From: an uncultured Bacilli bacterium
Lineage (GTDB): Bacteria > Bacillota_I > Bacilli_A > RF39 > UBA660
Assembly (NCBI GenBank): GCA_947585915.1
Contig: CANPXJ010000002.1
Coordinates: forward strand, 1-38,913
Direction: 5' to 3'
DNA: 38,913 nucleotides
Positions within the stretch are counted from its first letter, which is position 1; every line of letters begins with the position of its first letter. The notes under the pieces are model-generated. The model made no database searches, was not told where the DNA came from, and saw only the letters and a program-made list of their open reading frames with translations. The translations under genes were made by a program, and so were the position numbers. This document shows positions 4,903 through 38,641 of the stretch, in pieces.

Positions 4903-4930
4903 AAGACGCATTATTTCGATGATGCGTCTT
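4903..4930. terminator. Shared hairpin between the convergent agrBD and regulator/kinase operons
   Basis: AAGACGCAT (4903-4911), a 10-nt loop, then ATGCGTCTT (4922-4930), followed by T-rich sequence on the plus strand. The hairpin also encodes the last codons of the kinase on the minus strand. Confidence 0.6.
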
Positions 4931-16454: not shown

Positions 16455-18410
16455 ATGAAAAAAGTTTCTTTCTTAATAAAAAGTTGTATTTTTTTATGTA
16501 CGTTAGGAATTATTACTATTATAGCTTTATATGCTTATGCTTATTTTAGTCCTAAAATTGAACTTAAAAGCTCTAATCAATTTTATATATATGATAATGA
16601 TGAGAAGATAGTTTATGAAGGCTCCGGAACAACTAAATGGGTTGATTTAGAAGATATTTCTCCCAATTTAATTAACGCTGTAATTAGTATTGAAGATAAA
16701 AACTTTTATAAGCATCAAGGATTTGATTATTTAAGAATTGCGAAAGCCATGTTTAATAATTTGAAAAATCGTAATATAATGCAGGGCGCATCCACTATTT
16801 CTCAACAATATATAAAAAATATGTACTTAGATTTTGATAAAACTTGGAAAAGAAAAATAGAAGAAGCTTTTTTAACTTTAGAATTAGAAATGCACTATTC
16901 TAAAGATGAAATATTAGAAGGATATTTAAATACCATTAATTATGGACAGGGAAACTATGGGGTAGAAAATGCCAGTGAATATTATTTTAATAAAAGTGCT
17001 AAAGAGTTAACTCTAGAAGAAGCTGCTATTCTGGCTGGTATTCCTAAAAATCCTAGCAATTATAACCCAGTAAGTCATTTAGATAAATCTCTTAAAAGAG
17101 CAAATTTAGTGCTTGATGCAATGGTTAAAAATAATTATTTAAAAGAAGAAGATAAAAAAAATATTTCTTTTGATAATTTAGAAATTGTTGGTAAAAACAA
17201 TAATAAAAATTTACAAACTTTAATGTATTATCAAGATGCTGTTTTAGATGAACTTAAAACTTTAGATAATATTCCTAAATCTTTAATAGATGCGGGTGGT
17301 CTTAAAATATATACAACTCTAGATTTAAATTCCCAAGAAACTTTAGAAAACGCTATTTTAAATAATATGGATGAAGATAATGAACTCGAAGTAGCTAGTA
17401 TTATCATTAATCCGCAAAATGGAGGAGTTTCCGCTTTGGTTGGAGGAAAAGACTATGCTAAAAGTCAATACAATCGTGCTATTGACTCTAAAAGACAAGT
17501 TGGTTCCACAATGAAACCTCTTCTTTATTATTCAGCTTTAGAAAATGATTTTACGGCTTCTACTACTTTTTTATCTGCTCCTACTACTTTTTCTTTAGCC
17601 AACAACAAGACTTATTCCCCTTCAAACTACAATGATAAATATGCTAATAAAGATATAACTATGGCCGCAGCTATTGCTTACTCTGATAACATTTATGCTG
17701 TTAAAACGCATTTATTTTTAGGAGAAGAAAATTTAGTTGATATTGCTAAAAAAATGGGTATTAAAACTAAGTTAGAAGCCAATGCGTCTTTACCTTTAGG
17801 TACTAGTGAAATTCCAATGATTGATTTTGCTAGTGCCTATACAACTTTAGCAAGTGGCGGCTATAAGAGGGATATCCATTTTATAAAAAAAGTAGAAGAT
17901 TTAAATGGTAATGTTTTATATAAATATAAAAATGAGAAAGACTTAGTTTTAAATGAAAATTATGTTTATATCTTAAATGAACTTTTAACCTCTACTTATA
18001 ATAGTGCTTTTGTTGATTATAATTCCCCTACTGTTATGAGTCTTTCTTCTCAACTTTCTAAAAAATATGCTATTAAAACTGGTTCAACTGGAAGTGATTG
18101 TTGGATTGTTGGTTACAATAAAAAACATTTAATGATGGTTTGGAATGGTTATGATGACAGCCGAGAAGTGAAGGTAAGTGACGGGTCAATTTCTAAAAAA
18201 ATATGGCTAGATACTAGTGAAGAGGTTCTTAAAAATAAAGATGATACTTGGTATAAAGCTCCAAAAAATATTATAGGAATTCCTTTAAATGCCATAACTG
18301 GTGCGTATGATGAAAAAAGCAAAAATTCAAATATATTTTATTTTGTCAAAGGAACAGAGCCAGGAGCAAATAAGGAAATTAGTGTATCAAAAAATACTAC
18401 AGGTGAGTAG
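16455..18410 (+). CDS. Class A penicillin-binding protein (glycosyltransferase + transpeptidase)
   Basis: N-terminal TM. GT51 motifs EDKNFYKHQGFD and GASTISQQYIKN. Transpeptidase motifs STMKP, SDN (YSDNIY) and KTGST. Confidence 0.92.
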   Translation: MKKVSFLIKSCIFLCTLGIITIIALYAYAYFSPKIELKSSNQFYIYDNDEKIVYEGSGTTKWVDLEDISPNLINAVISIEDKNFYKHQGFDYLRIAKAMFNNLKNRNIMQGASTISQQYIKNMYLDFDKTWKRKIEEAFLTLELEMHYSKDEILEGYLNTINYGQGNYGVENASEYYFNKSAKELTLEEAAILAGIPKNPSNYNPVSHLDKSLKRANLVLDAMVKNNYLKEEDKKNISFDNLEIVGKNNNKNLQTLMYYQDAVLDELKTLDNIPKSLIDAGGLKIYTTLDLNSQETLENAILNNMDEDNELEVASIIINPQNGGVSALVGGKDYAKSQYNRAIDSKRQVGSTMKPLLYYSALENDFTASTTFLSAPTTFSLANNKTYSPSNYNDKYANKDITMAAAIAYSDNIYAVKTHLFLGEENLVDIAKKMGIKTKLEANASLPLGTSEIPMIDFASAYTTLASGGYKRDIHFIKKVEDLNGNVLYKYKNEKDLVLNENYVYILNELLTSTYNSAFVDYNSPTVMSLSSQLSKKYAIKTGSTGSDCWIVGYNKKHLMMVWNGYDDSREVKVSDGSISKKIWLDTSEEVLKNKDDTWYKAPKNIIGIPLNAITGAYDEKSKNSNIFYFVKGTEPGANKEISVSKNTTGE

Positions 18411-18412: not shown

Positions 18413-19645
18413 TTATTTTTCTATTTTAATAATTATTTGATATTCCTTATCCAAATCTATTTCTTCCGTATCAATTTTAAAACCCTTTTCTTTAAGTTTA
18501 TCAATAGCATCACGAGCTTGAGTAATAGCACTTGATAAATCTAGTCCAGCGTCCTCAATTTGTTTTTGTTCATAGTTAGGATCTAGCATTTCAACGTTAT
18601 CCATAGGGTCGAATAATGTTTCTAATTCTGGTTCGTCTTCTTCTGGTTCTAACGTTTCGTCAATTACAGGTGTATTGTCTATTTTAACTACGGGCTCATC
18701 ATTAGGAATATTAATAAACTTATTTTCTTGAGTTGGAGGGGTAGTAGGAGCAGACATGTTTTGTGGATTAAATGATTGTCCTAAATCAGGCGGAGTAGCG
18801 TTAAAAATTGAGTCGTCCCCTGATAAAGTATTTAAATTGGCCGATTCGTCTTCTAAAAAATTAAAAAATTTATTTTGGGGTTTGTCAGTTATATCGCTTT
18901 TAGATGTTGGTCTAGGGGCTTGGTTATCAAAATTAAAGAATGTATTTTCGCTTCTATTGTTTGGATTAATGTCAGTTGCTTTATTTTTTATATCATCTAC
19001 ATTACGAGTTATTGTCACTAAAGGGACACTATCATCTTTTTTATCTTGTTCTTTCTTTATTTCCATATCTAATTGTCTAACTGTTAGTCTTTCATTTATT
19101 GTTCTATTTAACCATCTCTTTTGGTCATCTTTATTTTCTAAAGCAAGCAAAGATCTAGCATGACGTTCGGATATTTGCCCATTTAATAAGGCTTGTTGAA
19201 CTTCTTCATCAAGATTTAGTAATCTTAATTTATTAGCAATGGCCGGTTGAGATATACCCATTTTTTTAGCTAATTGTTCTTGAGTTAAGTAACCTTTATC
19301 TAAAATATTTTTGTAACTTCTAGCTTCTTCTATAGCAGTTAAATCTTTTCTTTGAACATTTTCAACTAATGCTACCTCTGCACTAGCTTGGTCATCTATA
19401 TTAGAAATGATAGCTGGAACAGTAGTGAGTCCTGCCATACCTGCGGCACGAAATCTTCTTTCTCCTGCAATTATTTCATATTTATTTCCCATTTTACGAA
19501 GCACTAAAGGTTGAATTATTCCATGTTCTTTTATTGAATTAGAAAGTTCTTGTAATTCATTTTCATCAAAATTAACACGTGGTTGAAATTGATTAGGAAT
19601 AATATCAGCTAAAGAAATTTGCAATACTTCATTACTTGTATTCAT
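18413..19645 (-). CDS. parB: ParB/Spo0J-family protein with a long low-complexity C-terminal extension
   Basis: ParB box IIAGERRFRAAGMAG and HTH GISQPAIANKLRLL. Residues ~205-350 are Pro/Asn/Asp/Glu-rich, followed by a ~50-aa terminal segment. Total 410 aa. Confidence 0.85.
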   Translation of the reverse strand: MNTSNEVLQISLADIIPNQFQPRVNFDENELQELSNSIKEHGIIQPLVLRKMGNKYEIIAGERRFRAAGMAGLTTVPAIISNIDDQASAEVALVENVQRKDLTAIEEARSYKNILDKGYLTQEQLAKKMGISQPAIANKLRLLNLDEEVQQALLNGQISERHARSLLALENKDDQKRWLNRTINERLTVRQLDMEIKKEQDKKDDSVPLVTITRNVDDIKNKATDINPNNRSENTFFNFDNQAPRPTSKSDITDKPQNKFFNFLEDESANLNTLSGDDSIFNATPPDLGQSFNPQNMSAPTTPPTQENKFINIPNDEPVVKIDNTPVIDETLEPEEDEPELETLFDPMDNVEMLDPNYEQKQIEDAGLDLSSAITQARDAIDKLKEKGFKIDTEEIDLDKEYQIIIKIEK

Positions 19646-19679
19646 ACTTAATGCCCCTTTTTATTTTATTCTATAATTT

Positions 19680-19708
19680 ATTTTAGCAATTTTTTAAGAT
19701 TTTAGCAA
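19680..19708 (-). promoter_or_regulatory. Sigma-A-type promoter of parB
   Basis: On the minus strand, TTGCTA (plus 19703-19708), a 17-nt spacer, then TAAAAT (plus 19680-19685). Confidence 0.55.
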
Positions 19709-19857
19709 TAGTTCTGATATTAAAAAATACACATATTTAAGTATGCGCATCTTAATATCAACATTAGTTTAAGGTTTCTTATTGTTTAATCTTTTTTTTA
19801 TTTTTTTACTTTCGTAGTTTCTAAATATATATTCCATAATTTAATTCTTATAATTTA

Positions 19858-20787
19858 TTAACTGTTTTTAGGTGCACTATTGTATTTTTTTATAAATTTG
19901 ATGTAATCAACTAATCTATTAAATTCAGGATCTAAAGAAGTTAATATCTCTTTCATTGTATTCAATTCATGAGTATTATTTCTTAAATTCATTGTTTTTA
20001 AATATATTTTAGATAATTCGACTAATTTCTTTTCTTCCTGCTTTATGTCACTAATGTTTAAATCTAATATTCCTAATTTTTCGATTAATTTTTTATCTAT
20101 AATATTCTTTAAATATTCATCATTTTCTATATAACTTATTTTTTCTTTTACAGCATTTAATTCTTTTTCAATATCTTTATTCTTAGATACTCTTATAAAT
20201 CCATCGCTAGTAACTTCACTAATTATTTTTCTTCCTGCACCATACCTACGTGCTAATATAATAAAGTTTAAATAATTTATAAATATCATTCTATCAAAAT
20301 TTTTCAAATCTATAGCCAAATTTTGACCAAGAATTTTGTTGTCAGAAATTCTTGCTAAATGTTCATGAGTTGTATTTTTCCATTTGGTTATATCTTTTTC
20401 ACTTACCAAATAATATTCAGTATGCTCGTTGTCTAGATATACTTTAATATTATGATTATTATAATCAACCTCATACCCATGTACAAAGTTTATTTTATCG
20501 GGAATATCAATTTCATTTTCATATGTGTGAAAATCCGTGTGAAAATCAAGTTCTTTTCGGTTTTCAGAAAAATAATAATGACTAAATAGGTTCCCATTTT
20601 CATCAGTAATTTTTATGTCATATCTATAAGAATAATAATCACTATAGTTATCATTTTCTAATTTAGTAATTTTTTCAATTTTAAAATTTCCTCTTGAAGT
20701 ACTTACATTATATTCCCCATCTTCTAATTCTGATAGACTTCTCATCAAGTGCATGTTTTCTTCTTTATTTTTTATTTCGTTTTCCAT
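19858..20787 (-). CDS. Orphan paralog 1 of 3 (short form, lacks the C-terminal module)
   Basis: GGGAGG-ttttgttt-ATG at 20787. The track start at 20793 is an upstream TTG. The N-terminus MENEIKNKEENMHLMRSLSELEDGEYNVSTSRGNFKIEK is shared with the two upstream genes, as is NTHELNTMKEILTSLDPEF. Confidence 0.8.
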   Translation of the reverse strand: MENEIKNKEENMHLMRSLSELEDGEYNVSTSRGNFKIEKITKLENDNYSDYYSYRYDIKITDENGNLFSHYYFSENRKELDFHTDFHTYENEIDIPDKINFVHGYEVDYNNHNIKVYLDNEHTEYYLVSEKDITKWKNTTHEHLARISDNKILGQNLAIDLKNFDRMIFINYLNFIILARRYGAGRKIISEVTSDGFIRVSKNKDIEKELNAVKEKISYIENDEYLKNIIDKKLIEKLGILDLNISDIKQEEKKLVELSKIYLKTMNLRNNTHELNTMKEILTSLDPEFNRLVDYIKFIKKYNSAPKNS

Positions 20788-20846
20788 AAACAAAACCTCC
20801 CTTTGTTTTTTTTTAGTTATTATAATTTAGCTTTTTTGTTAATGAT

Positions 20847-22121
20847 TTAATTTTTCCCTTCACATCTTCTTTTTATTCTCTTCATTTCCTCATCTTCTTT
20901 TTGGTTTTGAATGATAATATCTATACCATCTATTATCTCTTGCGTATAGGCTCGGTCTAGACTTGTTATGTTATTTCCTTTTTCATCACTCATACGATAA
21001 CCATTATATAAAATATCAATTTGTAGTTTTCCTAAATTAGAAACATCAACAAAATATACTCCACAATGTAATTCTTTCAATTTATCATATAGCTCATCTG
21101 CAACGTGTGGTAGAGATTCATAAAAATGCTTTTTATTCATTTTAGTTTTTCTAAATTTTGGATTCAATTCAGATACTATTTCTATCATTGTATTTAATTC
21201 ATGAGCATTGGTTAAAATTTTCTTTGCTCCTAAATATAATCTACAATATTTTAATAATTCTTTTTCTTTACTTTTTAAATTATTTAAACTAACTTTTTTT
21301 TCAGTTAACTCTGATAATAAATCTTTATTTATTGGATCACTTAATTTTTGTTCAATATCCTCATCCATTGGCACTCTTATAGTCATGCCATTAATATCTA
21401 TTATTTTATCAAAATTAGATAAGTCTATTTTAAGTAAGCCTTCATTTATATTATCTTTATTATCAGTAATAAATAATATATTATCACTATCAATATCTAT
21501 TATTTTACGATTTGTGTTTTTATAATCCGTAATAAATGCATCAGTTGGTGCTTTCTTCGGATCAAAACTTTCTGTTCTATATACTTTACCACAACTTTCT
21601 AAGTCAAGAAAAATAACATGATAAACAACTTTACCATCCTTATTGAAAAACATAATTGAATCATTATGTCTTTCTTTTAAATTAACCTTATATGTATATT
21701 CAAAATCCGATGTATCATAATAGTCTATTTCTTTGTCATAATCCCAATAATTTGGAGGTTGAGAGCAATAACACTTAAAGTATTCAGCAAATAAATTATC
21801 GTTTTCATCAAAAATTAAAACTTTATTATCTTCATAAAATCCTGGTATATATTCTTTTGGTTTAATAACACCTGATCCACTTACTTTTATTTTAAAATTT
21901 CCTTTAGAGGTCTTTACTCTATATTCCACATTTGCTAGTTTTATCAAACTTCTCATTATATTCATATTAGCTTCTTTATTTTTTATCTCTTTTCTTATAT
22001 TACTTTTGATATTAAAATCTTTTTCTTCAGTTTCTAAAGAAGTTTCCATATTTTTTGCCTTTAAATTTAATATTTTTTTTATTATTCCAAGATTTTGCAA
22101 TTTTTTTATTTCATTCTTCAT
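20847..22121 (-). CDS. Orphan paralog 2 of 3 (long form with a duplicated or inserted N-terminal segment)
   Basis: GGAGG-ttttgttt-ATG at 22121. In the track start at 22136, the ATG overlaps the RBS. It contains KEIKNKEANMNIMRSL, NAHELNTMIEIVSELNPKF and the C-terminal module LKELHCGVYFVDVSNLGKLQIDILYNGYRMSDEKGN. Confidence 0.8.
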   Translation of the reverse strand: MKNEIKKLQNLGIIKKILNLKAKNMETSLETEEKDFNIKSNIRKEIKNKEANMNIMRSLIKLANVEYRVKTSKGNFKIKVSGSGVIKPKEYIPGFYEDNKVLIFDENDNLFAEYFKCYCSQPPNYWDYDKEIDYYDTSDFEYTYKVNLKERHNDSIMFFNKDGKVVYHVIFLDLESCGKVYRTESFDPKKAPTDAFITDYKNTNRKIIDIDSDNILFITDNKDNINEGLLKIDLSNFDKIIDINGMTIRVPMDEDIEQKLSDPINKDLLSELTEKKVSLNNLKSKEKELLKYCRLYLGAKKILTNAHELNTMIEIVSELNPKFRKTKMNKKHFYESLPHVADELYDKLKELHCGVYFVDVSNLGKLQIDILYNGYRMSDEKGNNITSLDRAYTQEIIDGIDIIIQNQKEDEEMKRIKRRCEGKN

Positions 22122-22155
22122 AAACAAAACCTCCATTATTTCAACTTAGTAATTA

Positions 22156-23328
22156 TTATAGTTTAGCTAATCTTCTTGTTAATGATTTAATTTCTTCTTC
22201 CATATCTTCTTTTGTTTGTGAGCGAAGTATTTCCTCTACCCCTTTTAGTATCCAAGCTCTCCATATAGGATTATGAATTTTCTTACAAACATTTCCATCT
22301 TCTGTACTAATTCTATATCCGTCTGGAAAAATATCAATTTGTAGTATTCTAAAACTATCTATATTAACAAAATATATACCACATTTTAATTCTTGTAATT
22401 TTTCATCAAGTTCTTTTGCTACAATTGTTTCCTTCTTATCACATATCTCTTTTTTTGGTAATTTCTTAAACTCAGGATTTAAACCTATTGCTATTTTTGT
22501 CATTAGATCTAAATTATGTGTATAATTTAAAGCCTCCATTGCTTTTGCATATAATTTAGATAATTCAGTTAATTTTTTTTCTTCTTTCTTTATCCCACTA
22601 TAGTCTAAATCAGAAATATATAAAGATTCACAGACTTTAAATTTCGACGAATCCTTGTCTATAACTTTATTTAAATATTCATTTTTTTCAATTTGACTAT
22701 TTATTTCTTGATTTATTTTATCTAAATAGCTATTAAATTGTTCAACTCCTTGCTTATATTTATTTATTTCTTCAATAATATCTTTGTCTTTTGATATTCT
22801 TATTTCCTTCTCATTAATTTTTATTATTCGATCAAAATTGTTTAAATCTATTGAAAGGTATTCTGTATCATCCTTTAAATCATTAGTAATTATGTTATTA
22901 TCAACATAAATTCCTTGGGTTGCACCTTCTTCGTTAGGAAAGAAAATATCTGTTTCATCTATAGTATAAAATATTGTATGTTCTTTATTGGTATAAATAT
23001 AGACTTTTGCTTCCTTACAATCTATATCATACCCATAATTTAAGTTAAGTTCAGGAGAATGATCTGCCTCTCTTTCTAACAAGTCCCCCTCTGTATTACT
23101 ATTATAATAGTGATTGTAATAGTATTGACTAAATGGAGCACCTTGTTCATCCGTAATTAAAATATTTTTATATTCATCATACGCACCACAAACAATATTA
23201 CAAGTTCCTGATTTTTCTATTTTAAATTTACCTTCGAGAGTATTTACACTATATTCCCCATCTTTTAGTTCTGATATCATTCTCATCAAGCGCATGTTTG
23301 CATCTTTGTTTTTTATTTCATTCTTCAT
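22156..23328 (-). CDS. Orphan paralog 3 of 3 (long form)
   Basis: GGAGG-ttttgttt-ATG at 23328. MKNEIKNKDANMRLMRMISELKDGEYSVNTLEGKFKIEK, and the C-terminal module LQELKCGIYFVNIDSFRILQIDIFPDGYRISTEDGN. Confidence 0.8.
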   Translation of the reverse strand: MKNEIKNKDANMRLMRMISELKDGEYSVNTLEGKFKIEKSGTCNIVCGAYDEYKNILITDEQGAPFSQYYYNHYYNSNTEGDLLEREADHSPELNLNYGYDIDCKEAKVYIYTNKEHTIFYTIDETDIFFPNEEGATQGIYVDNNIITNDLKDDTEYLSIDLNNFDRIIKINEKEIRISKDKDIIEEINKYKQGVEQFNSYLDKINQEINSQIEKNEYLNKVIDKDSSKFKVCESLYISDLDYSGIKKEEKKLTELSKLYAKAMEALNYTHNLDLMTKIAIGLNPEFKKLPKKEICDKKETIVAKELDEKLQELKCGIYFVNIDSFRILQIDIFPDGYRISTEDGNVCKKIHNPIWRAWILKGVEEILRSQTKEDMEEEIKSLTRRLAKL

Positions 23329-23354
23329 AAACAAAACCTCCTCATTTCATTTTA

Positions 23355-23363
23355 ATTATACCA
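23355..23363 (-). promoter_or_regulatory. Extended -10 element (TGgTATAAT) in front of paralog 3
   Basis: On the minus strand, TGgTATAAT lies about 20 nt upstream of the GGAGG of paralog 3, in the 48-bp gap after rsmG. TATAAT hexamers also precede paralogs 2 and 1 at similar distances. Confidence 0.45.
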
Positions 23364-23376
23364 TTTATAGTCCCGT

Positions 23377-24090
23377 TTATAAAGGTCTTTTCTTAATCTT
23401 ATCGTATCTTCTTGGATACTTTGAAGGATTAGAATTTATCTTTTTAAATTTTATTAAAGTTCTAAGTGACTCTTCAATTGGTAAATTAAATTCACAAATA
23501 TCTTCAGTTTTTCCATTTAAAACTAAAAGAGCATTATTAATATTACTTACTTCTTCTTTTGCTTCGCCTTTTAAAGATACGAAAAAACCATCTTTTTTAA
23601 CAAAAGGTAAACATAACTCTAATAAAATATTTAAATTAGCAACGGCCCTGGCTGTAACTAAATCATATTTATCATAATTATTTAAAGCATATTCTTCTGC
23701 CCTACTATGAATCAAATTCACATCTTTTAAATTCAATTTTTCGACTAATTTTTTTAAAAATAAAATTTTTTTATTATTAGCATCAATTATATCTAATTTT
23801 AAATGTGGATAAAAAATTTTTAAAACAATTCCGGGAAATCCTCCCCCACTACCTACATCTAATAAAGAAGCAATCTTATTTAAATCAATTATCTTCGTAA
23901 TCGTTAAACTATCATAAAAATGCTTTAAGTATACATCTTCCTTTTTGGTAATAGCTGTGATATTTATTTTAGCATTCCAGTAAATTAAAGTTTCATAATA
24001 AACATTTAATTTTTCTAACATTTCTTTGGTATATAAAATATTTAACGTTTCTAACTCTTTAATAAACACTTTTTCATTCATTTTTGCCAT
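23377..24090 (-). CDS. rsmG: 16S rRNA (guanine527-N7)-methyltransferase
   Basis: SAM motif LLDVGSGGGFPGIVLKI, 237 aa, downstream of mnmG. Confidence 0.93.
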   Translation of the reverse strand: MAKMNEKVFIKELETLNILYTKEMLEKLNVYYETLIYWNAKINITAITKKEDVYLKHFYDSLTITKIIDLNKIASLLDVGSGGGFPGIVLKIFYPHLKLDIIDANNKKILFLKKLVEKLNLKDVNLIHSRAEEYALNNYDKYDLVTARAVANLNILLELCLPFVKKDGFFVSLKGEAKEEVSNINNALLVLNGKTEDICEFNLPIEESLRTLIKFKKINSNPSKYPRRYDKIKKRPL

Positions 24091-25960
24091 ACTCTTTCTT
24101 TAAATATACTGATAATACTGCAATATCGGAAGGATTGACACCACTTATTCTTGTTGCTTGAGCAATAGTAGTAGGATTTACTTTTTTTAATTTTTCTAAA
24201 GCTTCAGTAGCTAGGTTACCAACTTTATCGTAATCAATATCTTTAGGGATTTTTTTGTTTTCTAAACTTATTAACCTTTCTACTTCTTTTTTAGTTTTTT
24301 CAATATACCCTTCATATTTAATTGCTATTTCTACTTGCTCTAATATTTCTTCGTTATAATCTAAACTGCAAAAGTTTTTTAAAAATTTAATATTTATTTC
24401 AGGTCTTTTTAATAACTTACTTAAACTTTCTGAACGATTAGGAATTTCTATATTATTTTGAGTAAATATTTTCTTTGTTTCTTCGTTTAGTTTAAGATTT
24501 GTCGTTTTTAAAAGATTAATAACATAATTTATGTTTTTTTCTTTTTCAATTAGATTATCATATTGTTTTTGGTCAATTAAGCCTATTTCATATCCATATT
24601 TTCTTAAGCGTAGATCAGCATTATCTCCTCTTAATAATAAACGATATTCGGCTCTTGATGTAAGCAATCGATATGGTTCTTTCGTTCCTTTGGTAACTAA
24701 ATCATCAATTAAAACACCAATATAAGCTTCATTTCTTTTTAAAACTAAAGGTTCTTTGCTATCAATTTTTAAGCAAGCATTTATACCAGCCATTAAGCCT
24801 TGCGCAGCAGCTTCCTCATAACCACTAGTTCCATTAATCTGACCAGCTGTAAATAAATTAGTAATTATTTTTGTTTCTAAAGAACTTTTTATTTGTAAAG
24901 GATTTATAGCATCATATTCGATAGCATAAGCATATTTATTTATTTTTGCTTTTTCAAACCCTTTTAAACTATGAACCATTCTTTCTTGAACATCCTTTGG
25001 CATACTAGTTGAAAATCCTTGTAAATACCATTCATCATTAGAAACTGTTTCTGGTTCTAAAAACAATTGATGTCTTTCTTTATCTTGAAATCTAACAATT
25101 TTATCTTCAATAGATGGACAATATCTAGGTCCTACTCCCTCAACATATCCTCCATACATACTTGATTTATCTAAATTTTCTTTGATTATTTTATGAGTTT
25201 TTTCATTTGTATAAACTAAATAACAACTTATTTGTTTATCTAAGTCATAGCTTGGTTCATTATCAAAACTAAAAGTATAATACTTATTATCCCCTTTTTC
25301 TTCTTGTAATTCTTTTAAATTAACTGTTCTTTTATCAATACGCGGAGGTGTTCCAGTTTTAAGTCTTTGAATTTCAAAACCTAAATTTCTTAATTTATCA
25401 CTTAAATTTTTAGAAAAGTTTTCCCCATGAGGTCCGCTGGGGGTTTTAGTATCCCCAACTAAAATTTGGGATTTTAAGTAAGTTCCAGTTGTTAAAATGA
25501 CACATTTAGACTTTATTATTTCGCCATTTTCTAAAATAACACCCTCTATTTTTTTGTTCTTTACATCTAATCCTTCAACCATAGCTTCTTTAATTTCTAA
25601 ATATTTTTGGCTTTTTAAAATATTTAACATCGCTTTAGGATATTCTACTTTATCAGCTTGAGCTCTTAAAGACCTTACGGCTGGACCCTTTTTAGAATTT
25701 AACATTTTTATTTGTAAATGAGTCTTATCAGCAACCTTTCCCATTATTCCTCCAAGAGCATCTATTTCTCTAACTACAATTCCTTTGGCTGTTCCCCCAA
25801 TTGAAGGATTACAGGGCATATCGGCAATATTTTTAATGTTAGCACTTATTAATAAAGTTTTTTTCTTTAATTTACTACAAGCATAAGAGGCTTCACAACC
25901 TGCATGGCCTCCACCAACAACAATAACATCATACATATTTTCACCTACTTTCCTAAACAA
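24074..25960 (-). CDS. mnmG: tRNA uridine 5-carboxymethylaminomethyl modification enzyme MnmG
   Basis: FAD motif YDVIVVGGGHAGCEA. The probable true start is the ATG at 25936 (AGGTGA 5 nt upstream), which removes the overlap with mnmE. Confidence 0.96.
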   Translation of the reverse strand: MFRKVGENMYDVIVVGGGHAGCEASYACSKLKKKTLLISANIKNIADMPCNPSIGGTAKGIVVREIDALGGIMGKVADKTHLQIKMLNSKKGPAVRSLRAQADKVEYPKAMLNILKSQKYLEIKEAMVEGLDVKNKKIEGVILENGEIIKSKCVILTTGTYLKSQILVGDTKTPSGPHGENFSKNLSDKLRNLGFEIQRLKTGTPPRIDKRTVNLKELQEEKGDNKYYTFSFDNEPSYDLDKQISCYLVYTNEKTHKIIKENLDKSSMYGGYVEGVGPRYCPSIEDKIVRFQDKERHQLFLEPETVSNDEWYLQGFSTSMPKDVQERMVHSLKGFEKAKINKYAYAIEYDAINPLQIKSSLETKIITNLFTAGQINGTSGYEEAAAQGLMAGINACLKIDSKEPLVLKRNEAYIGVLIDDLVTKGTKEPYRLLTSRAEYRLLLRGDNADLRLRKYGYEIGLIDQKQYDNLIEKEKNINYVINLLKTTNLKLNEETKKIFTQNNIEIPNRSESLSKLLKRPEINIKFLKNFCSLDYNEEILEQVEIAIKYEGYIEKTKKEVERLISLENKKIPKDIDYDKVGNLATEALEKLKKVNPTTIAQATRISGVNPSDIAVLSVYLKKEYGKNE

Positions 25961-27319: not shown

Positions 27320-27348
27320 ATTATAGCATGTTGAAGACTTTATCCACA
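27320..27348 (-). promoter_or_regulatory. mnmE promoter (TGcTATAAT) with a perfect DnaA box over the -35 position
   Basis: On the minus strand, TGcTATAAT (-10 at plus 27320-27325). TTATCCACA on the plus strand at 27340-27348 overlaps where the -35 should be. Confidence 0.5.
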
Positions 27349-27471
27349 ACCTAAATTACGAAAATATTTTAAGATATTATTACAAAATTTTTAAGTGATT
27401 TATAATAAATACTTTTTTTACTTTTTACATAATATATTTTATTTTGATAATATTTATCATTTAATTTATTA

Positions 27472-28086
27472 TTAAAAAAATAAATATATTATTGATGGTA
27501 TTATCAATAAGAGTAATAGAATAATAATAGTTCTTAATACTATTTTCTTCTGAATATTCGAAAAAAATTTATGTTTTTTTATAGTAAAAATAATTTGATA
27601 AATTAATATTATTGGATATATTGGAATAATTGACCCAACTAAAAGAACTATTAATATTGCTTCAAATCCATAATAAATTGTAGTATCATCAAAAAAACTA
27701 ATCTCTATTCCAAATATACTAAAATATATTAGTAATAAATAGGGAAGTAAACTTATCATGTATAAAACAAATAGTTTATCATTTTTCTTGATTTTCGGAG
27801 GAACTTTTAATTCCTTATCTTTTTTCTTACTTGGTTTATCTAATAAATAATAAATAGGATATACTATACAAAAAATTATTAAAAATATATAAAATATATT
27901 CAAATCTATAATAATTTCAAACCAAAAATTGGCGAGAGGTTCAACCAAACAGTATAAATCCAAATGCCCGGTTTCAACAATATCTTGACACAAATTAAAA
28001 ATTCCCATAACTAATAATATTAAATATGGAAGTATTGATAAAAATAATAAAATTTTTTTTATCTTGAATTTAATAGTGTTATCCAT
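27472..28086 (-). CDS. Polytopic membrane protein of unknown function (204 aa)
   Basis: About six hydrophobic helices, with a Lys-rich loop KPSKKKDKELKVPPKIKKNDK in the middle. AGAGGTAA precedes the ATG. Confidence 0.7.
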   Translation of the reverse strand: MDNTIKFKIKKILLFLSILPYLILLVMGIFNLCQDIVETGHLDLYCLVEPLANFWFEIIIDLNIFYIFLIIFCIVYPIYYLLDKPSKKKDKELKVPPKIKKNDKLFVLYMISLLPYLLLIYFSIFGIEISFFDDTTIYYGFEAILIVLLVGSIIPIYPIILIYQIIFTIKKHKFFSNIQKKIVLRTIIILLLLLIIPSIIYLFF

Positions 28087-28164
28087 AATTTACCTCTAAC
28101 AAATATATTGTACCATTATTTTATATCTAATAAAAGAATTTTAATAATTACTAATTGATAGTTT

Positions 28165-29424
28165 TTAATTTTTTAAAGTTCCTATCGAAACTACATAAAC
28201 TCCATCATCACGCTTGTAAGAGTAATTAGCTCCAGTTAACACCATTAAGAATAATGGTTCTCCACATTTTTTAGTATCCACTCTTTTTTTAAATTTTAAA
28301 AGATTCTTCGCAGCTTCATCAATATATCCAGCTCCGAGTTTTATTTCAATAGCTCCCCATTTTCCACTACTTGTCCTAAATATGGCATCTACCTCAAAAT
28401 CTTTTTCATCACGATAAAAGGTTAAATCTCCATTGTAACTTTGCGTATATATCTTTAAATCTCGCATACATAGTGACTCAAACATAAAACCAAATGTATT
28501 TAAATCATTAATTAAATCATTAGGTTTAATATCTAGAATTGCTGTAGCAATAGAAGGATCAACAAAATATAACTTAGGTTTTGTTCTAAGAGCATACTTA
28601 CTTCTAAAATTTAAGTTAGTTGCATTAACATTTTCAATTACAAATAATTTAGCTAAAGTATTTAAGTAATCGTTTATTGTTGGTCGAGAGATATTATCAT
28701 TAAATTTGTTTTGCACATCATTTTCTAATGTAGAATTAGATACTTGAGTAGAAATATTTCTTGCTAAACTTCTTAAAATGTTTTGCATTTTTTCGGGATT
28801 TCTTTCTATTCCATCAATTTTTTTTACTTCTTCATGTAATAAAGATTTTACATATTCTTTAGCAAATCTATATTTTGCCTCACTTTTTACCTCTAAAGAA
28901 GCAGGCCATCCACCTCTTACAATAATACTGGCTATATCTTCTAATGATAATTTGGAGACCCCTGATATATCTTTTCCTTCCAATATATTTTTAAATGAAA
29001 CTTCTCCAGTAGATTCGTTTGATTCATACAAACTCATAGGACGCATTAAAACTCTTGAAATTCGGCCCGTTCCAGTGTGCATTGTTTCACCTTCGCTTGG
29101 TTTAGCTGAACCAGTAAGGATATATTGTCCTTTTAATCTGGAATGATCAATATCTGTTCTAATTGAATCCCAAACTACTGGGTACATTTGCCATTCATCA
29201 AACATTCTAGGTTTTTCTCCTGTTAAAAATAAAGAAGGTTTAGTATTTTTAATTTCATCATATTCTTGCTTTTTATCAGGATTTTGAAATTCAATAACAC
29301 TTTTTGAATGATGCAAACCTGTTGTTGATTTCCCACACCATTTGCACCCTTCTATTAAGACTGCTCCCATTATTTCCATAAGTTCATCTATTTCGAAATC
29401 CACAACTCTTGGTAAATATTTCAT
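28165..29424 (-). CDS. AAA+ ATPase of the AAA_14 + DUF4143 type, with a PD-(D/E)xK-like C-terminus
   Basis: P-loop-like GCKWCGKST near the N-terminus. C-terminal FEVDAIF...WGAIEIKLG matches a D...E-x-K nuclease-fold signature. 419 aa, with GGAGGGG as RBS. Confidence 0.7.
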   Translation of the reverse strand: MKYLPRVVDFEIDELMEIMGAVLIEGCKWCGKSTTGLHHSKSVIEFQNPDKKQEYDEIKNTKPSLFLTGEKPRMFDEWQMYPVVWDSIRTDIDHSRLKGQYILTGSAKPSEGETMHTGTGRISRVLMRPMSLYESNESTGEVSFKNILEGKDISGVSKLSLEDIASIIVRGGWPASLEVKSEAKYRFAKEYVKSLLHEEVKKIDGIERNPEKMQNILRSLARNISTQVSNSTLENDVQNKFNDNISRPTINDYLNTLAKLFVIENVNATNLNFRSKYALRTKPKLYFVDPSIATAILDIKPNDLINDLNTFGFMFESLCMRDLKIYTQSYNGDLTFYRDEKDFEVDAIFRTSSGKWGAIEIKLGAGYIDEAAKNLLKFKKRVDTKKCGEPLFLMVLTGANYSYKRDDGVYVVSIGTLKN

Positions 29425-31727: not shown

Positions 31728-32471
31728 TTATTTATCAGATGGTGATAAAGAAAGAATTTTATTATTTATTTCGTTAAAACATCTTACATCTTCTTCATCC
31801 ATATATTCATCAAGCTGACATATCCAGAATATGTGATAACTTTTAATCACTACATTTCTATGTGCTAATATATCTGATCCTTTGACTTTTTCTGCAAAAT
31901 AATAATTATATTCTGGATCTTTACTTTTTAAAATCACTTGTCCATGTGCTTTAATATTCGCTCCTATCACGAATTGAGCAAATTCATAATTCAACTGTAG
32001 ATTTTTGCTATCTAAAACTATTTGTTCATGTGATTTGATATCCGCTCCTTCAACATCACGAGCATAGTAGTAATTCAATTCTGGGTCTTTACTATCTAAA
32101 ATTATTTGACCATGTGCTTTTACATTAGCACCTTTTACATCACGAGCAAAGTAATAACTTACTTTAGGATTATTACTTTCTAAAACAATTTGTTCGTGGG
32201 CCTTGATATCCGCTCCTTCAACATCACGAGCATAGTAGTAATTCAATTCTGGGTCTTTACTATCTAAAACTACTTGAGCGTGTGCTTTTATATCTGCCCC
32301 TTTAATGTTTTTTGCAAACCAAGTACTTAATTCTGGATTTTTTACTTTTAAAATATTTTTTTCAAATAATTCTATTACAACACTATTTCCCCAGCCTTCT
32401 TGAACAAATTTTATCTTAGATATTATTTCATCAATTTTATTCTTTTCAATTTCACTTTTACTTTCATTCAT
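31728..32471 (-). CDS. Tandem-repeat protein: six 28-residue repeats (predicted helical solenoid), function unknown
   Basis: The repeats fit P-E-x-x-Y-Y-(F/Y)-A-x-x-V-x-G-A-(D/N)-(I/V)-K-A-H-x-Q-(I/V)-(V/I)-L-x-S-K-x, for example DSKDPELNYYYARDVEGADIKAHEQIVL. The track start at 32516 is a TTG. The ATG at 32471 (MNESKSE) has GGAAAGGAA upstream. Confidence 0.8.
   Translation of the reverse strand: MNESKSEIEKNKIDEIISKIKFVQEGWGNSVVIELFEKNILKVKNPELSTWFAKNIKGADIKAHAQVVLDSKDPELNYYYARDVEGADIKAHEQIVLESNNPKVSYYFARDVKGANVKAHGQIILDSKDPELNYYYARDVEGADIKSHEQIVLDSKNLQLNYEFAQFVIGANIKAHGQVILKSKDPEYNYYFAEKVKGSDILAHRNVVIKSYHIFWICQLDEYMDEEDVRCFNEINNKILSLSPSDK
32035..32269. repeat. 67-bp perfect direct repeat (32035-32101 and 32203-32269), 168-bp period, inside the repeat-protein gene
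   Basis: Both copies read ttgatatccgctccttcaacatcacgagcatagtagtaattcaattctgggtctttactatctaaaa. They correspond to protein repeats 2 and 4. Confidence 0.9.
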
Positions 32472-32540
32472 GTTAATTTCCTTTCCCAAACTTAATTTAA
32501 TATTAATAGTATTCAAAAATATTTATTAAATAAAATTTTC

Positions 32541-33635
32541 TTAATTACGATTAAGTTTTCTTTCTATTCTTAATCTTTTTATTTCTTCTTTTTTAAAATT
32601 TTCATCTTCAGCATGATTTTTTAAAACATTTACAAGATTTTGCATTGCTTCTTGTTTCTTATTTTTATCAATATCATAAATATCTTTAATAGTAACTTTT
32701 TCTACTTTTTCATATTTTTTTGTTCTATCAAAGTAATTTTCATAACATACTAAATTAGGATTTCCTCCCAATTCTAAATACTTAGCAATAAAATCATCTA
32801 AATTTGGATCAGAGGTATCTATTCCATATATCATTGGTATATCTATATTTCTATTAAATTCCTGGGCAAATAATAAACCGCGACGAGGTCCTATTCTATT
32901 TCCTCCCCTTTCAATAATACGATACATTACACAATTTAATAATTCTTCTTTAAAATAACAATCTTGTTTATAATTGTTTATGGCATTTAATAATTCTTCT
33001 CTTGTATCACTAGCTATTTTAATAGAATTACTATCTAAAAAATTTAAAAATTCTTCCGCCTTTACATCATTTAATTTTACGATTTTTCCATTATTATCCT
33101 TAATTTCAATTATAGGTGAATTTTTAAAGGAAGAATAAAGGGTACTTACTCTAAGTCGTCCTTTAGCTGTTAGATAATAATAATAATTATTATTATTCAA
33201 TATTTTGAGCCTATGACAACATAAACTTTGACATCTAGGTTTTGCTAAAAAATGATATTCATAATTAGGTAAAGTATTAGTAAAAGCATTCAAATTATAT
33301 AAATCTGCCCAATCTAATAATTGAATATCTGAATCCTCATCAATTTGAGATTTTAAATATATATTTTCTTTAAACATTTTTCTATTGATATTTTCTTTAT
33401 CATTATAAGGAAAACGAAGCTCATACCAAACGGCCATTTTTTCAATAAAATTTCTTAACTCTATGGGTTCTCTATACTCTCCTATATCAGTATATTGTCC
33501 TTTTACCATGTTTTCATAATACCAATTAATAAATTCATCTACTTTATCATCTAGAACAATTGGTTTTTCATTTTCTTCCTTTTCTAAAAAACTATTTAAT
33601 TTTTCTTTTAACATTTCTAAATATTTCTTTTTCAT
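32541..33635 (-). CDS. Hypothetical protein (364 aa)
   Basis: AAGGAG lies 5 nt upstream of the ATG. No motif I recognise. Conserved-looking core RIIERGGNRIGPRRGLLFAQEF. Confidence 0.75.
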   Translation of the reverse strand: MKKKYLEMLKEKLNSFLEKEENEKPIVLDDKVDEFINWYYENMVKGQYTDIGEYREPIELRNFIEKMAVWYELRFPYNDKENINRKMFKENIYLKSQIDEDSDIQLLDWADLYNLNAFTNTLPNYEYHFLAKPRCQSLCCHRLKILNNNNYYYYLTAKGRLRVSTLYSSFKNSPIIEIKDNNGKIVKLNDVKAEEFLNFLDSNSIKIASDTREELLNAINNYKQDCYFKEELLNCVMYRIIERGGNRIGPRRGLLFAQEFNRNIDIPMIYGIDTSDPNLDDFIAKYLELGGNPNLVCYENYFDRTKKYEKVEKVTIKDIYDIDKNKKQEAMQNLVNVLKNHAEDENFKKEEIKRLRIERKLNRN

Positions 33636-33750
33636 AAATACTCCTTCTTTTTGAGACTTAGTATATCATAAAAATCATTTTTTACAATATTTTTTCTTGT
33701 AGAATATTAATTAATCCATTATAATATTTTTTCAAAGGAGAAACATTAAA

Positions 33751-35211
33751 ATGGATAAAATACTTTCTTTTTCTAACTCTAATGATATTTTTAACTATAT
33801 AAAATTTATCGATTCTTACTCTGATAATGAAATAATTAATAATTTACCTCTTATGATATTTAATATGAAAAGATTATTTTTGTATTCTAAATTAGAAGAA
33901 TATATCAAAATTTCCATTAAAAATATTAAAGATATAAATTTAAAAAGTGAGCAAATAAAAAAATATTTTTATAATTTTTACAAATATGATTGGGAGAATA
34001 TATTTTCTATAATAGAAAATCACTCTTTAAAAGAAAAAGAATGTATCTTAAGAAATCTTAATAATTTAAAATTTTCTAGAGTTCAAAATATTTTAAATAT
34101 TCCTTCAAACTTAAATTTTGGATTAGAGCTAGAATATAGTAATGTTTCTCTTAAGTTTTTAAAAAAGTTATGGACAAATAATTCTATAATTGGATTAATG
34201 AATATTTTAGATATACCCAAAGATATTCAAAATTCTATTATCAAAAATACTGTTTTTGAAAAAGAAGGGGAGTTTGATAAATTTAACATTTCTATAGAAA
34301 ATGATATTGATACTGATTCAGAATTATCAACACCGATAATGAATAATTCTTTAAAAAACTTAAATGAAATAAAAGCCTTTATTCTTTTATTTAAATTTTT
34401 AAATGCCGAGCTAAACGGTTCTACATCGTTACAAATCAATATAGATGTAAAATATTTGCAAAAAAACATAAAAGCTTTAAATTATTTATTGACTATATGG
34501 GGTGAATGTGAAGAATTGTTTTTTAAAATTGCTGGTCCAGAAAATGAAGTAATAAGAAATAGTACGCTTACAATGGCTAAACCAATTAAACATAATATTC
34601 AAAATTTCTTTAATAATAATTCAAATTTTGAAATTAATGATAATGATGATATGAATTTATTTCTTTATAATGTTCAGGGGAAAGAATATTTAGAACAAAT
34701 ATTAGAATATACCCATGATTCATTACTAAATTCTATTAAAACTAAAGATGATAAAATTATTGTATTTAATAAATTTATGAAAGAAGATATTAATAATAAA
34801 AATGATATAAAGTATACAAGTATAAATTTTAATCATATGGAGTGGAATAAGAATATTGGTAGAATTGAATTTAGAATTTTTAATAATTCCTTATCCTCTG
34901 ATATAATATTTCAAGATTTAACTTTAATAGCTAAATTATGTGAAACTTGTGTACTATTAGCTAGTAATCCTTTTTATAAAAAAGAAATTTACGTTGCTTT
35001 ATTAAATCATAATATTTCTGAAGAAAATAAATTAAATTTGTTATTAGATTTATTATTTGATGATGATTATGATAAAAACGTCTTTAAAAAAAGGTGGAAT
35101 TCCGTAAAAGATTTAGAATTTTATCAATATTTTAAAGTGGGTGTTGATACATTTTGCACTTCTCCTAATAATAAACAATTAATAAAATCTTTATCCACAA
35201 CTAATTCTTAA
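33751..35211 (+). CDS. Divergent amidoligase-like protein (glutamine synthetase/GCS2-like fold, Amidoligase_2-like); tentative
   Basis: Ordered motifs: FGLELEY (G-x-E-x-E strand), ELSTPIM (E-x-x-S/T-P), GSTSLQINIDV (where H-V-H-V is expected) and GRIEFRIFNNS (T/I-E-F-R). 486 aa with AAAGGAGA as RBS. Confidence 0.4.
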   Translation: MDKILSFSNSNDIFNYIKFIDSYSDNEIINNLPLMIFNMKRLFLYSKLEEYIKISIKNIKDINLKSEQIKKYFYNFYKYDWENIFSIIENHSLKEKECILRNLNNLKFSRVQNILNIPSNLNFGLELEYSNVSLKFLKKLWTNNSIIGLMNILDIPKDIQNSIIKNTVFEKEGEFDKFNISIENDIDTDSELSTPIMNNSLKNLNEIKAFILLFKFLNAELNGSTSLQINIDVKYLQKNIKALNYLLTIWGECEELFFKIAGPENEVIRNSTLTMAKPIKHNIQNFFNNNSNFEINDNDDMNLFLYNVQGKEYLEQILEYTHDSLLNSIKTKDDKIIVFNKFMKEDINNKNDIKYTSINFNHMEWNKNIGRIEFRIFNNSLSSDIIFQDLTLIAKLCETCVLLASNPFYKKEIYVALLNHNISEENKLNLLLDLLFDDDYDKNVFKKRWNSVKDLEFYQYFKVGVDTFCTSPNNKQLIKSLSTTNS

Positions 35212-35383
35212 TTTTAATCACTAATAAATTAGGAATATTTTACTTACTAACATTTTTAACAAGTTTGTTAATAAATTTATCCATAATTGTTGATTATTTT
35301 AACTAAAATTTGTGGAAAATGTTGATAAGTTCTTTTTTTTTAGTTATTATAGTAACTAAACTTGTTGATAACATTGTGAATAA
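35191..35383. promoter_or_regulatory. oriC left part: DnaA-box cluster upstream of dnaA
   Basis: Perfect TTATCCACA at 35191-35199, inside the last codons of the upstream ORF. One-mismatch boxes at 35277-35285 (TTATCCATA), 35311-35319 (rc TTTTCCACA), 35320-35328 and 35363-35371 (rc TTATCAACA), and 35375-35383 (rc TTATTCACA). Confidence 0.8.
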
Positions 35384-38179: not shown

Positions 38180-38641
38180 ATGAAAGATTATGAAATAAAT
38201 GAACAAACTTTAGCTATTATTCCATGGAAAAACAAAAGTAAAGTCTATGAAAAAGAAATCAATTTTGTGGTTGATAAAAGTGTTCATACAATTATGGAAG
38301 AAAGTTGTGAATATTTTGGAAGTTCTTTAGAAGGAAGACAAAAAGGAACTACTTCTTTGATTGGTGTAAGACATAAAACCCCAATTATTATTGAGGAAAG
38401 TAAGGAAATAATATTTTTTCCTACCTCATCACCCAGAGGAAATAATTGTTCTTGGATATCTTTAAATAATTTAGAAAATTATAAAAAAGAAAATGATAAA
38501 ATTCGTTTAAGATTTAATAATAAAAAGGAAATTAATATGGATATTTCTTATGGAATTATTGATAATCAAGTTTTAAGAGCAACTAGGTTAGAATCAATCT
38601 TAAGAAAAAGAAAAGAGGTGAATTTCAAAAGTAAATTGTAA
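38180..38641 (+). CDS. comK: Competence transcription factor ComK family
   Basis: 153 aa. TLAIIP...IMEESCEYFGSSLEGRQKGT..L.G...KTPIIIEES..IIFFPTSSPRGNNCSWISL matches my memory of the ComK core (SC..(F/Y)GSS..GR, K.PI.I, FPT.SP...C.W). Confidence 0.8.
   Translation: MKDYEINEQTLAIIPWKNKSKVYEKEINFVVDKSVHTIMEESCEYFGSSLEGRQKGTTSLIGVRHKTPIIIEESKEIIFFPTSSPRGNNCSWISLNNLENYKKENDKIRLRFNNKKEINMDISYGIIDNQVLRATRLESILRKRKEVNFKSKL

Follow-up and report, generated by a model that had tools for sequence, protein, structure and literature searches.

In Bacillus, noc and soj sit between rsmG and spo0J. What are the three paralogous genes that lie between rsmG and parB in an uncultured Bacilli bacterium? We analysed a stretch of 38,913 nucleotides (nt) from this organism (contig CANPXJ010000002.1), called the window, whose coordinates are used throughout. 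The paralogs are named X3, X2 and X1, from rsmG-proximal to parB-proximal. In copy number and sequence, this locus changes far faster than the surrounding genome. Briefly, the minus-strand order is mnmE, mnmG, rsmG, X3, X2, X1 and parB, followed by a convergent gene for a class-A penicillin-binding protein (PBP). The X genes were defined by open reading frame (ORF) and translation, the flanks by Pfam match.

22156–23328, minus strand: X3, 390 amino acids (aa), rsmG-proximal, full architecture
20847–22121, minus strand: X2, 424 aa, middle paralog
19858–20787, minus strand: X1, 309 aa, parB-proximal, without the C-terminal module
23377–24090, minus strand: rsmG, upstream flank (Pfam GidB, 1.8e-49)
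18413–19645, minus strand: parB, downstream flank (Pfam ParB_N 7e-35 and HTH_ParB 6e-33)

An initial annotation, made without database searches, had placed three same-strand paralogs of 309, 424 and 390 aa at this junction and seen no ParA/Soj gene in the window. The ORFs and the Pfam-assigned flanks agree with the first statement. Pfam scans, and synteny with the annotated related loci L001 and L014, agree with the second. The G+C content of the array is ~25%. Rfam and tRNA scans of the window returned no matches.

We compared the window with its close relative, L014. The outer flanks share 95.9–98.1% nucleotide identity (blastn), and the mnmE–rsmG segment 88.9% as far as position 23212. Here, at codon 39 of X3, similarity ends. 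It resumes at the parB promoter (19695). The interval between these points is listed below.

19696–23211, strand unspecified: variable islet relative to L014 (blastn of the window against L014)

Inside the islet, only patches of 65–80% identity were detected. At the protein level, PBP is 99% identical between window and L014, and ParB and MnmG are both 92% identical. The single X copy of L014 is only ~39% identical to X of the window (tblastn), and L014 also has an LMWPc gene. Hence, three X copies face one, despite outer flanks that are 96–98% identical. A similar picture emerged for L001 and L019/L020. Their flanks are 96.4% identical, and a clean 2.4-kb indel corresponds to a 404-aa gene plus one X copy. 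Because copy number differs between such close genomes, the rsmG–parB junction is a strain-variable islet.

The initial annotation had proposed a survey of how often the family sits at this junction and in how many copies. We found 1 to 3 copies between rsmG and parB, varying between strains. The recovered arrangements are listed below.

rsmG-[X]n-parB in the window and L002–L005: 3 copies
rsmG-[X]n-parB in L001: 2 copies and an unrelated gene of 404 aa
rsmG-[X]n-parB in L008: 1 copy and a membrane protein of 205 aa
rsmG-[X]n-parB in L014–L017: 1 copy and, on the other strand, an LMWPc gene
rsmG-[X]n-parB in L019–L023: 1 copy
mnmE-[X]3-mnmG in L010/L009: 3 copies
Upstream of proS in L007, L018 and L011 (two genes between): 1 copy
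Unrelated settings in L012 and L013: 1 copy

The L002–L005 contigs are mutually identical and so add no population information. In at least five lineages the family sits at proS or elsewhere, away from the origin cluster. The rsmG–parB gap also takes unrelated cargo (the 404-aa gene, the 205-aa membrane protein and the LMWPc phosphatase) and therefore behaves as a permissive insertion site. In a neighbour-joining tree, each window paralog pairs with its own L002 ortholog. Hence, the triplication shared by the window and L002 predates their split. The same tree places separate duplications in the window/L002, L001 and L009 lineages. No conserved partner gene accompanies X; all-against-all BLAST of neighbours from divergent contexts revealed no shared gene, and Pfam found no informative families among them. 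Whatever the function of X, the rsmG–parB junction is an accessory-gene hot spot in this clade, and the missing soj and noc should not be over-interpreted.

The mnmE–mnmG array has peculiarities of its own. In metagenome-assembled genome (MAG) E20_bin216, a contig end splits the first of the three X copies (L010 7965–8402 and L009 3–671), which also contains an in-frame TAA and an A17 tract. This copy may be a pseudogene, contain a slippage-prone tract or reflect an assembly error. At L009 2122–3693, one family member reaches 523 aa because ~130 additional residues separate its C-terminal β-module from the terminal helix.

Are the X genes kept by selection? In the window and L002 alike, the frames of X1, X2 and X3 are unbroken. 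In neutral simulations of X1 and X3 at the observed divergence, 0 of 5000 frames stayed open and the mean was 12–13 stop codons. For the flanking genes, synonymous divergence (dS) between window and L002 is 0.10–0.16, and the ratio of non-synonymous to synonymous divergence (dN/dS) is 0.08–0.22. Corresponding values are 0.38 and 0.37 for X3, 0.31 and 0.66 for X1, and 0.013 and 1.09 for X2 (15 non-synonymous and 3 synonymous changes). The orthologs of X3 and X2 in L002 are 78% and 96.7% identical, respectively. Ratios of non-synonymous to synonymous differences were compared with those of the flanks by Fisher test (p = 9e-11 for X3, 4e-17 for X1 and 3e-5 for X2). For X3, dN/dS is significantly below 1 (p = 2e-6). 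Synonymous divergence is significantly higher than in the flanks for X3 and X1, and about ten-fold lower for X2 (p = 3e-8). In an independent pair, the L001_c copy and L019, dN/dS is 0.33 compared with 0.01–0.17 in the flanks (p = 1.6e-4). We conclude that X1, X2 and X3 are real protein-coding paralogs kept by selection. The initial annotation had also allowed for decaying duplicates, and the intact frames and simulations speak against this. Decay is confined to the C-terminal module of X1; the ORFs are not decaying neutrally.

Divergence is unevenly spread along X3. Compared with L002, residues 1–30 and 271–390 are at 94–100% nucleotide identity. Two segments between them are hypervariable.

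23059–23238, minus strand: hypervariable segment 1 of X3 (residues 31–90, long β-hairpins; 60–67% nucleotide identity to the L002 ortholog)
22879–22968, minus strand: hypervariable segment 2 of X3 (residues 121–150; 57% nucleotide identity to the L002 ortholog)

Across segment 1, in 40-codon windows, the proportion of synonymous differences (pS) is ~0.5–0.6 and that of non-synonymous differences (pN) is 0.18–0.36. For residues 121–161, pS is 0.55 and pN is 0.36. The two alleles are about as divergent here as paralogs are. A role of X1 or X2 as gene-conversion donor for the variable segments of X3 is not supported; the local paralogs are only 42–60% identical to X3 in these regions. Compared with L014, pS peaks at the locus: 0.13 in mnmE, 0.42 in mnmG, 0.48 in rsmG, 0.55 in X, 0.33 in parB and 0.15 in the PBP gene. 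Together, the data show that the scaffold is under purifying selection, that variable segments are replaced by recombination and that divergence peaks at the locus. This pattern is expected for long-lived allelic diversity. The initial annotation had proposed a diversifying family with conserved ends and varied middles. Copy-number turnover, the X3 mosaic and dN/dS values raised above those of the flanks agree with this. We conclude that the islet changes by tandem duplication, deletion and allelic replacement within a conserved origin-proximal backbone.

The unevenness extends outside the islet. The PBP (16455–18410) of window and L014 is 98.6% identical at the protein level with a pS of 0.15, and RsmG is 81.6% identical with a pS of 0.48 (mnmG/rsmG, 23377–25936). 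This indicates recombination tracts that reach beyond the X islet. The scanned window ORFs gave no reverse transcriptase domain, and the locus does not qualify as a diversity-generating retroelement. Direct repeats within 19600–23450 are the paralogs themselves.

The initial annotation recognised no family among the paralogs. In agreement, Pfam, NCBIfam, PADLOC and PHROGs scans of X1–X3 gave no credible match, and neither did a Pfam scan of 19 family members. All PHROG matches had E-values of 0.02 or worse. A family profile searched against PDB sequences reached a best E-value of 0.07. An exhaustive hidden Markov model (HMM) scan of 1.84 billion representative proteins recovered only 22 relatives, the weakest of which, a 722-aa protein (E = 4.9e-4), is doubtful. 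Word-indexed homolog search had missed most of the family, including X1 and X2 of the window. Every relative that was traced stems from a gut metagenome or from a MAG labelled "uncultured Bacilli bacterium", and no cluster member is named in the source databases. No X relative was found in JGI metagenome contigs, IMG/VR, INPHARED phage records or PLSDB plasmid records. A literature search found nothing on the X family or the rsmG–parB junction. The profile searches thus assign the family to no known domain. Orphan families are common in metagenomes and uncultured lineages, and the functional claims made below are hypotheses.

One apparent match was rejected. Residues 161–239 of X3 matched the tail of ZorA (17.5 bits, E = 3.4e-4, PADLOC-DB v2). 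The match is compositional and stems from a K/E-rich helix. It was the only one below E = 0.1; X1 and X2 had no PADLOC match, and there is no Zor partner gene.

To what fold do these sequences correspond? AlphaFold2 produced confident models, although from shallow alignments, for X3 (predicted local distance difference test, pLDDT, 80; predicted template modelling score, pTM, 0.71) and for P0015, a distant member at 24% identity (pLDDT 82, pTM 0.70). The X3 model has a helix at residues 6–18, a β-meander at 24–178, helices at 184–222 and 246–287, a helix plus three-strand module at 305–341 and a C-terminal helix at 354–389. One layout describes both models. An N-terminal helix is followed by ~14 antiparallel strands, of which the first five form long hairpins, a helix of ~40 residues and a helical pair. 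A second helix with a module of three to five strands comes next, and then a C-terminal helix of 36–46 residues. The last has a–d heptad spacing, with I/L at 3-4-3 intervals in "IKxLxKxLxxL". The predicted architecture is therefore a helix-hairpin, an up-and-down β-meander of ~150 residues that would carry the two hypervariable segments, a helical stalk, a copy of the helix-hairpin and a heptad helix.

Foldseek searches of PDB (both models) and BFVD (X3) returned no match at E < 1e-3. Fold membership was set at this E-value together with a template modelling score (TM) above 0.5. The best PDB matches had E = 0.015–0.035 with TM of ~0.3 or less, and the best BFVD match had E = 5e-3 with a query-normalised TM of 0.14. 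LolA/YmcC/lipocalin-like open β-barrels, and MORN or OspA-like β-sheets, did not reach the threshold and were rejected. Hence, the X family matches nothing known by sequence or predicted fold, and is new by distance. Six residues are invariant across the family (G33, I58, Y69, N172, Y260 and I279), and no conserved set of acid, base or nucleophile is among them. These few invariant residues are structural. Since no catalytic-type residue is invariant, X is probably a binding or scaffold protein rather than an enzyme.

Family proteins are soluble, span ~310–520 aa and are mostly acidic (isoelectric point, pI, mostly 5–6.7), with a Tyr content of 5–8.5%. Transmembrane segments are absent from X1–X3, as initially annotated; the highest 19-residue Kyte–Doolittle mean is ≤1.08. 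Overall, the paralogs are 33–42% identical to each other. The initial annotation had counted 26 of 37 identical N-terminal positions between X1 and X3, and our count gave 27 of 39. The other listed motifs are likewise common to the paralogs in the translation alignment, including IDLxNFD(R/K)(I/M)I and the helical KEEKKL...HELNTM...LNPEF region. X2 starts with a copy of the X3 start and has 41 additional codons before the family N-terminus, so that the family profile covers X2 residues 43–423.

The C-terminal module is indeed present in X2 and X3, where it had been described as an extra. Rather, it repeats the N-terminal helix-hairpin within the same protein, as detected by hhalign of sub-alignments (probability 91.7%, P = 7.9e-7, 28 columns); four control comparisons gave P ≥ 0.076. 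X1, in turn, lost its own copy. Directly after the X1 stop codon lies a non-coding remnant, found by local alignment, with scores of 42 against X3 and 40 against X2 (shuffled mean ~26, shuffled maxima 39 and 38). This sequence evidence indicates that X1 is a C-terminally truncated derivative that formerly had the module. An insert within X1, at residues ~173–195, holds an out-of-frame copy of its own 20014–20041 segment (repeat D10). The C-terminal tails of X1 differ between window and L002.

23215–23301, minus strand: N-terminal helix-hairpin motif of X3, repeat unit A (residues ~10–38; hhalign)
22333–22422, minus strand: C-terminal helix-hairpin motif of X3, repeat unit A' (residues ~303–332; hhalign; helix 305–313, strands 317–322 and 328–334)
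19823–19856, minus strand: C-terminal module remnant (KLQELKCGIYF-coding), directly following the X1 stop codon

How is the array expressed? The sequence GGAGGTTTTGTTTATG was found at the starts of X1, X2 and X3. As the initial annotation had reported, all three genes begin with the same translation start, GGAGG-TTTTGTTT-ATG (GGAGG-N8-ATG). The annotation had also assigned a TATAAT hexamer to each cassette. This stands for X3, which has the only convincing promoter of the array. It does not stand in general, because TATAAT-type promoter matches occur at chance level (50, compared with 41.9 ± 7.0 in shuffled sequence) and the promoter-like hexamers of X1 are separated by a spacer of only 12 nt. 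The X3 promoter overlaps the rsmG stop codon, and L002 carries the same promoter. In every other recovered locus, an equivalent sigma-A-like TTGnnn/TGnTAnnnT promoter and GGAGG site precede the first or single copy. This holds even for family members that are only 24–25% identical. Ahead of X2, the promoter-like site is a plausible candidate, though of a type found at chance frequency in AT-rich DNA. The X1 ortholog in L002 has a degenerate Shine–Dalgarno site.

23309–23341, minus strand: repeated translation start block, X3 copy (GGAGG-TTTTGTTT-ATG and first codons; repeat family D7)
22102–22134, minus strand: translation start block, X2 copy (33 nt, 100% identical to the X3 copy)
20768–20800, minus strand: translation start block, X1 copy (91% identical)
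23355–23383, minus strand: sigma-A-type promoter of X3 (TTTATA, 17 nt, TG-extended TATAAT; TTTATA-17-TGgTATAAT)
22155–22182, minus strand: promoter-like site ahead of X2 (TTAACA, 16 nt, TATAAT; inside the X3 3' end; 11 of 12 matches)
19714–19761, minus strand: terminator-like hairpin with U tract, between X1 and the parB promoter (RNA fold −17.7 kcal/mol, z = −3.8)
19680–19708, minus strand: parB promoter-like site (TTGCTA, 17 nt, TG-extended TAAAAT)

A consensus terminator scan predicted no terminators between the X genes. The same scan missed the hairpin at 19714–19761 because its stem is AU-rich. From this hairpin and the separate promoter-like site of parB, the array and parB appear to be transcriptionally separated.

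Some known systems resemble the X locus. Tandem orphan-immunity arrays occur in polymorphic toxin systems, for example EsaG/DUF600 next to EsaD in Staphylococcus aureus. Like X, these are cytoplasmic, same-strand tandem paralogs with no signal peptide, conserved ends and variable middles; copy number is strain-variable and copies recombine. However, X proteins are 2–3 times larger, and single-copy members are common. None of the 19 members has an Imm, SUKH or DUF600-type domain (Pfam), and no toxin, LXG/WXG or type VII secretion gene was found in the window or related loci. Nor does X have a cognate toxin beside or upstream of it, be it LXG, Rhs, CDI or WXG-associated. The neighbours are rsmG, parB, mnmG, mnmE and the PBP gene and, elsewhere, proS, LMWPc, GNAT and orphans. 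HsdS, of type I restriction–modification, offers an analogy of design only. It too has two hypervariable recognition segments in a conserved frame with long helical spacers, alleles shuffled by recombination in conserved parts and raised divergence around the locus. Conversely, X lacks a Methylase_S domain, hsdM/hsdR neighbours and DNA-binding features, and its variable parts are predicted β-hairpins of one domain rather than two target-recognition domains.

The pilE/pilS system of antigenic variation also shares features with the array. In both, promoter strength is greatest at the 5' copy, the conserved 5' block recurs in the downstream copies, and one of these is truncated with weak signals. 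Unlike pilS, however, no local copy is the donor of the X3 variable segments, and the downstream X copies keep their own Shine–Dalgarno site and start codon, with ORFs under selection. For the predicted fold, the only recurrent weak Foldseek classes with both models were CapZ and open up-and-down β-barrels (the BACUNI_01323 'porin-like' protein 4ghb, YmcC-like 3fzx, BDI_3050 4fvs, LolA and VtrC/ToxS). These have an antiparallel β-meander in common with X and, in CapZ, the sheet is backed by a long C-terminal helix. With E ≥ 0.015 and TM of ~0.3 or less, this is a description of topology, not homology or a shared fold. X has no signal peptide, but most of the bacterial proteins among these hits are exported.

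What, then, might X do? Tentatively, we favour a recognition protein that is oligomeric and non-enzymatic, evolves under diversifying or balancing selection and is possibly related to conflict. Here, X would be a scaffold that oligomerises through its long heptad helices, and the variable β-hairpin face would be the recognition surface that determines specificity. Alleles would be replaced by recombination anchored in two conserved blocks, namely the promoter, ribosome-binding site and first 39 codons, and the 3' half. Several divergent copies and alleles would be kept because the ligand itself varies; hence, the locus would be under diversifying or balancing selection. Such a ligand would most plausibly be foreign, a phage or competitor protein, and so the locus would be of the conflict type. 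The position next to parB would simply be a permissive, highly expressed insertion site, with no functional link to segregation.

Several observations weigh against this interpretation. Within the hypervariable segments, dN/dS is 0.4–0.66 at near-saturated pS. Since these values are below 1, positive selection is not demonstrated, and relaxed constraint with recombination could produce the same picture. Oligomerisation and the recognition surface are read from models of the monomer. Domain scans and neighbour comparison found no effector domain or partner gene for X. In the window and related loci, no toxin, defence, phage or mobile-element genes lie next to X. The immunity-like or anti-phage role suggested by the initial annotation therefore lacks direct evidence, be it a toxin gene, a defence domain or linkage to phage or mobile elements. 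Furthermore, all sampled lineages of the clade carry the family, often as one copy driven by sigma-A. This distribution looks more like that of a lineage-specific housekeeping gene than a sporadic defence gene.

A bolder form of the recognition-protein interpretation is rather unlikely as it stands. X would represent a new-fold class of cytoplasmic hypervariable recognition proteins, acting as sensor or decoy in a defence or self/non-self system of uncultured gut Bacilli that is as yet undescribed. The recombining, multi-allele islet would be kept at rsmG–parB, where gene dosage and expression are high. If the favoured interpretation holds, a compact and tractable protein family would behave like a specificity locus while being invisible to current annotation resources. 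Specificity-type loci usually mark interactions between host and parasite, or with competitors. An uncultured gut lineage would also have yielded a new fold and, possibly, a new mechanism.

The main rival is that X is a lineage-specific structural or cell-biological scaffold, for example a coiled-coil protein in division, the envelope or nucleoid organisation. Weak constraint on most of its surface would be the only reason for its fast evolution, and additional copies would be subfunctionalised or partly redundant. We consider this doubtful, but a serious competitor. Occurrence in every sampled lineage, often in one copy with a housekeeping-type promoter, is consistent with such a role, as are the absence of a mobile-element context and X dN/dS values below 1. 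The L001_c copy is 96% conserved between strains, and long heptad helices are typical of scaffolds. Even so, relaxed constraint alone explains neither the locus-centred synonymous peak nor the sharp mosaic boundaries. It also leaves unexplained why X2 is 10-fold less diverged than the flanks, and why one or three copies occur amid flanks that are 96–98% identical. Could the genes instead be non-functional, decaying duplicates? X1 speaks for this idea, having lost its C-terminal module with a remnant beyond the stop codon and carrying an out-of-frame internal duplication and a tail that differs between window and L002. Its 12-nt promoter spacer, the degenerate Shine–Dalgarno site of its L002 ortholog and an X2 dN/dS of ~1 point the same way. 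With all three ORFs intact in two genomes, no simulated X1 or X3 frame surviving neutrality and X3 dN/dS significantly below 1, we find decay highly improbable.

Two further roles were weighed against recognition. X could be a spore-surface (coat or exosporium) protein, or one otherwise exported by a non-classical route, whose exposed face diversifies under pressure from host or phage. Coat proteins need no signal peptide, are lineage-specific, and are often Tyr-rich and encoded by tandem paralogs. The window carries sporulation genes (SpoIID and a SpoIIR ortholog), and the Tyr content of X would suit a coat protein. However, X promoters resemble those of sigma-A (TTGnnn, TG-extended −10) and not sigma-E or sigma-K, and X matches no coat-protein family. 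This role is unlikely. The initial annotation had raised a role at the origin or in segregation. In such a role, X would be a partner of ParB and take over the function of Soj/ParA or Noc. This is very unlikely. Location speaks for it. X occupies the noc/soj slot of Bacillus, between rsmG and parB on the same strand, in a window without a ParA gene. It is also origin-proximal in the window, L002, L001, L008, L014 and L019, and L009/L010 have it in the same cluster, at mnmE–mnmG. The proteins themselves do not fit. No P-loop NTPase domain (CbiA/AAA_31) was matched by Pfam or NCBIfam in the paralogs or 19 members, and the three translations contain no GK[ST]. ParB_N and HTH_ParB domains are absent from X1–X3 and confined to the neighbouring parB. 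X proteins are mostly acidic, with no DNA-binding signature. X is hypervariable next to a ParB that is 92–98% conserved. A dedicated ParB partner should be conserved, yet X is 39% identical where ParB is 92% identical, and its copy number varies between strains. Other lineages have X upstream of proS or elsewhere, and the hairpin and separate promoter would uncouple parB from the array. Finally, canonical parS (TGTTTCACGTGAAACA) has no match at ≤3 mismatches anywhere in the 39-kb window around oriC and parB.

The neighbouring ParB has a low-complexity stretch of its own, rich in Asn, Pro, Asp and Glu, of ~140 residues (roughly 200–340) after the HTH domain. Its ortholog in L009 is 517 aa long. 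Long plus-strand ORFs run antisense to X2 (21208–21525), X3/rsmG (23294–23677) and parB (18756–19163). These are probably by-products of an AT-rich, purine-skewed coding strand.

The host is a low-GC sporulating Firmicute. In addition to SpoIID and the SpoIIR ortholog, the window encodes ComK and an Agr-like module.

38180–38641, plus strand: ComK gene, directly downstream of dnaN
4133–6907: Agr-like module (AgrB, GHKL histidine kinase, LytTR response regulator)
27472–28086, minus strand: ORF of 204 aa, without Pfam match and very hydrophobic in several stretches
28165–29424, minus strand: AAA_14/DUF4143 ATPase gene, between jag/khpB and mnmE
31728–35211: three further orphan genes, between rnpA and a DnaA-box cluster
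35191–35383: DnaA-box cluster upstream of dnaA
36833–36904: DnaA-box cluster between dnaA and dnaN

The AAA_14/DUF4143 ATPase gene is present in the window and L014 but not in L001 or L019; it adds a second insertion of accessory DNA to the origin-proximal cluster. Between this gene and mnmE, a segment of ~760 bp (27333–28093) with the 204-aa ORF is missing from L014. L001 has nothing between dnaA and rpmH, where the window has the three further orphans. One encodes 262 aa made of about five 28-aa (84-nt) tandem repeats (31894–32302). The other two are ORFs of 364 and 486 aa with no Pfam match. A likeness between the C-terminal tail of X and the ORF at 32541–33635 was not significant (E = 5.5). 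DnaA boxes are enriched in the window, with 30 matches at ≤1 mismatch compared with 12.2 expected, and the cumulative GC-skew minimum falls near 33–34 kb. By sequence, the two DnaA-box clusters look like a bipartite oriC.

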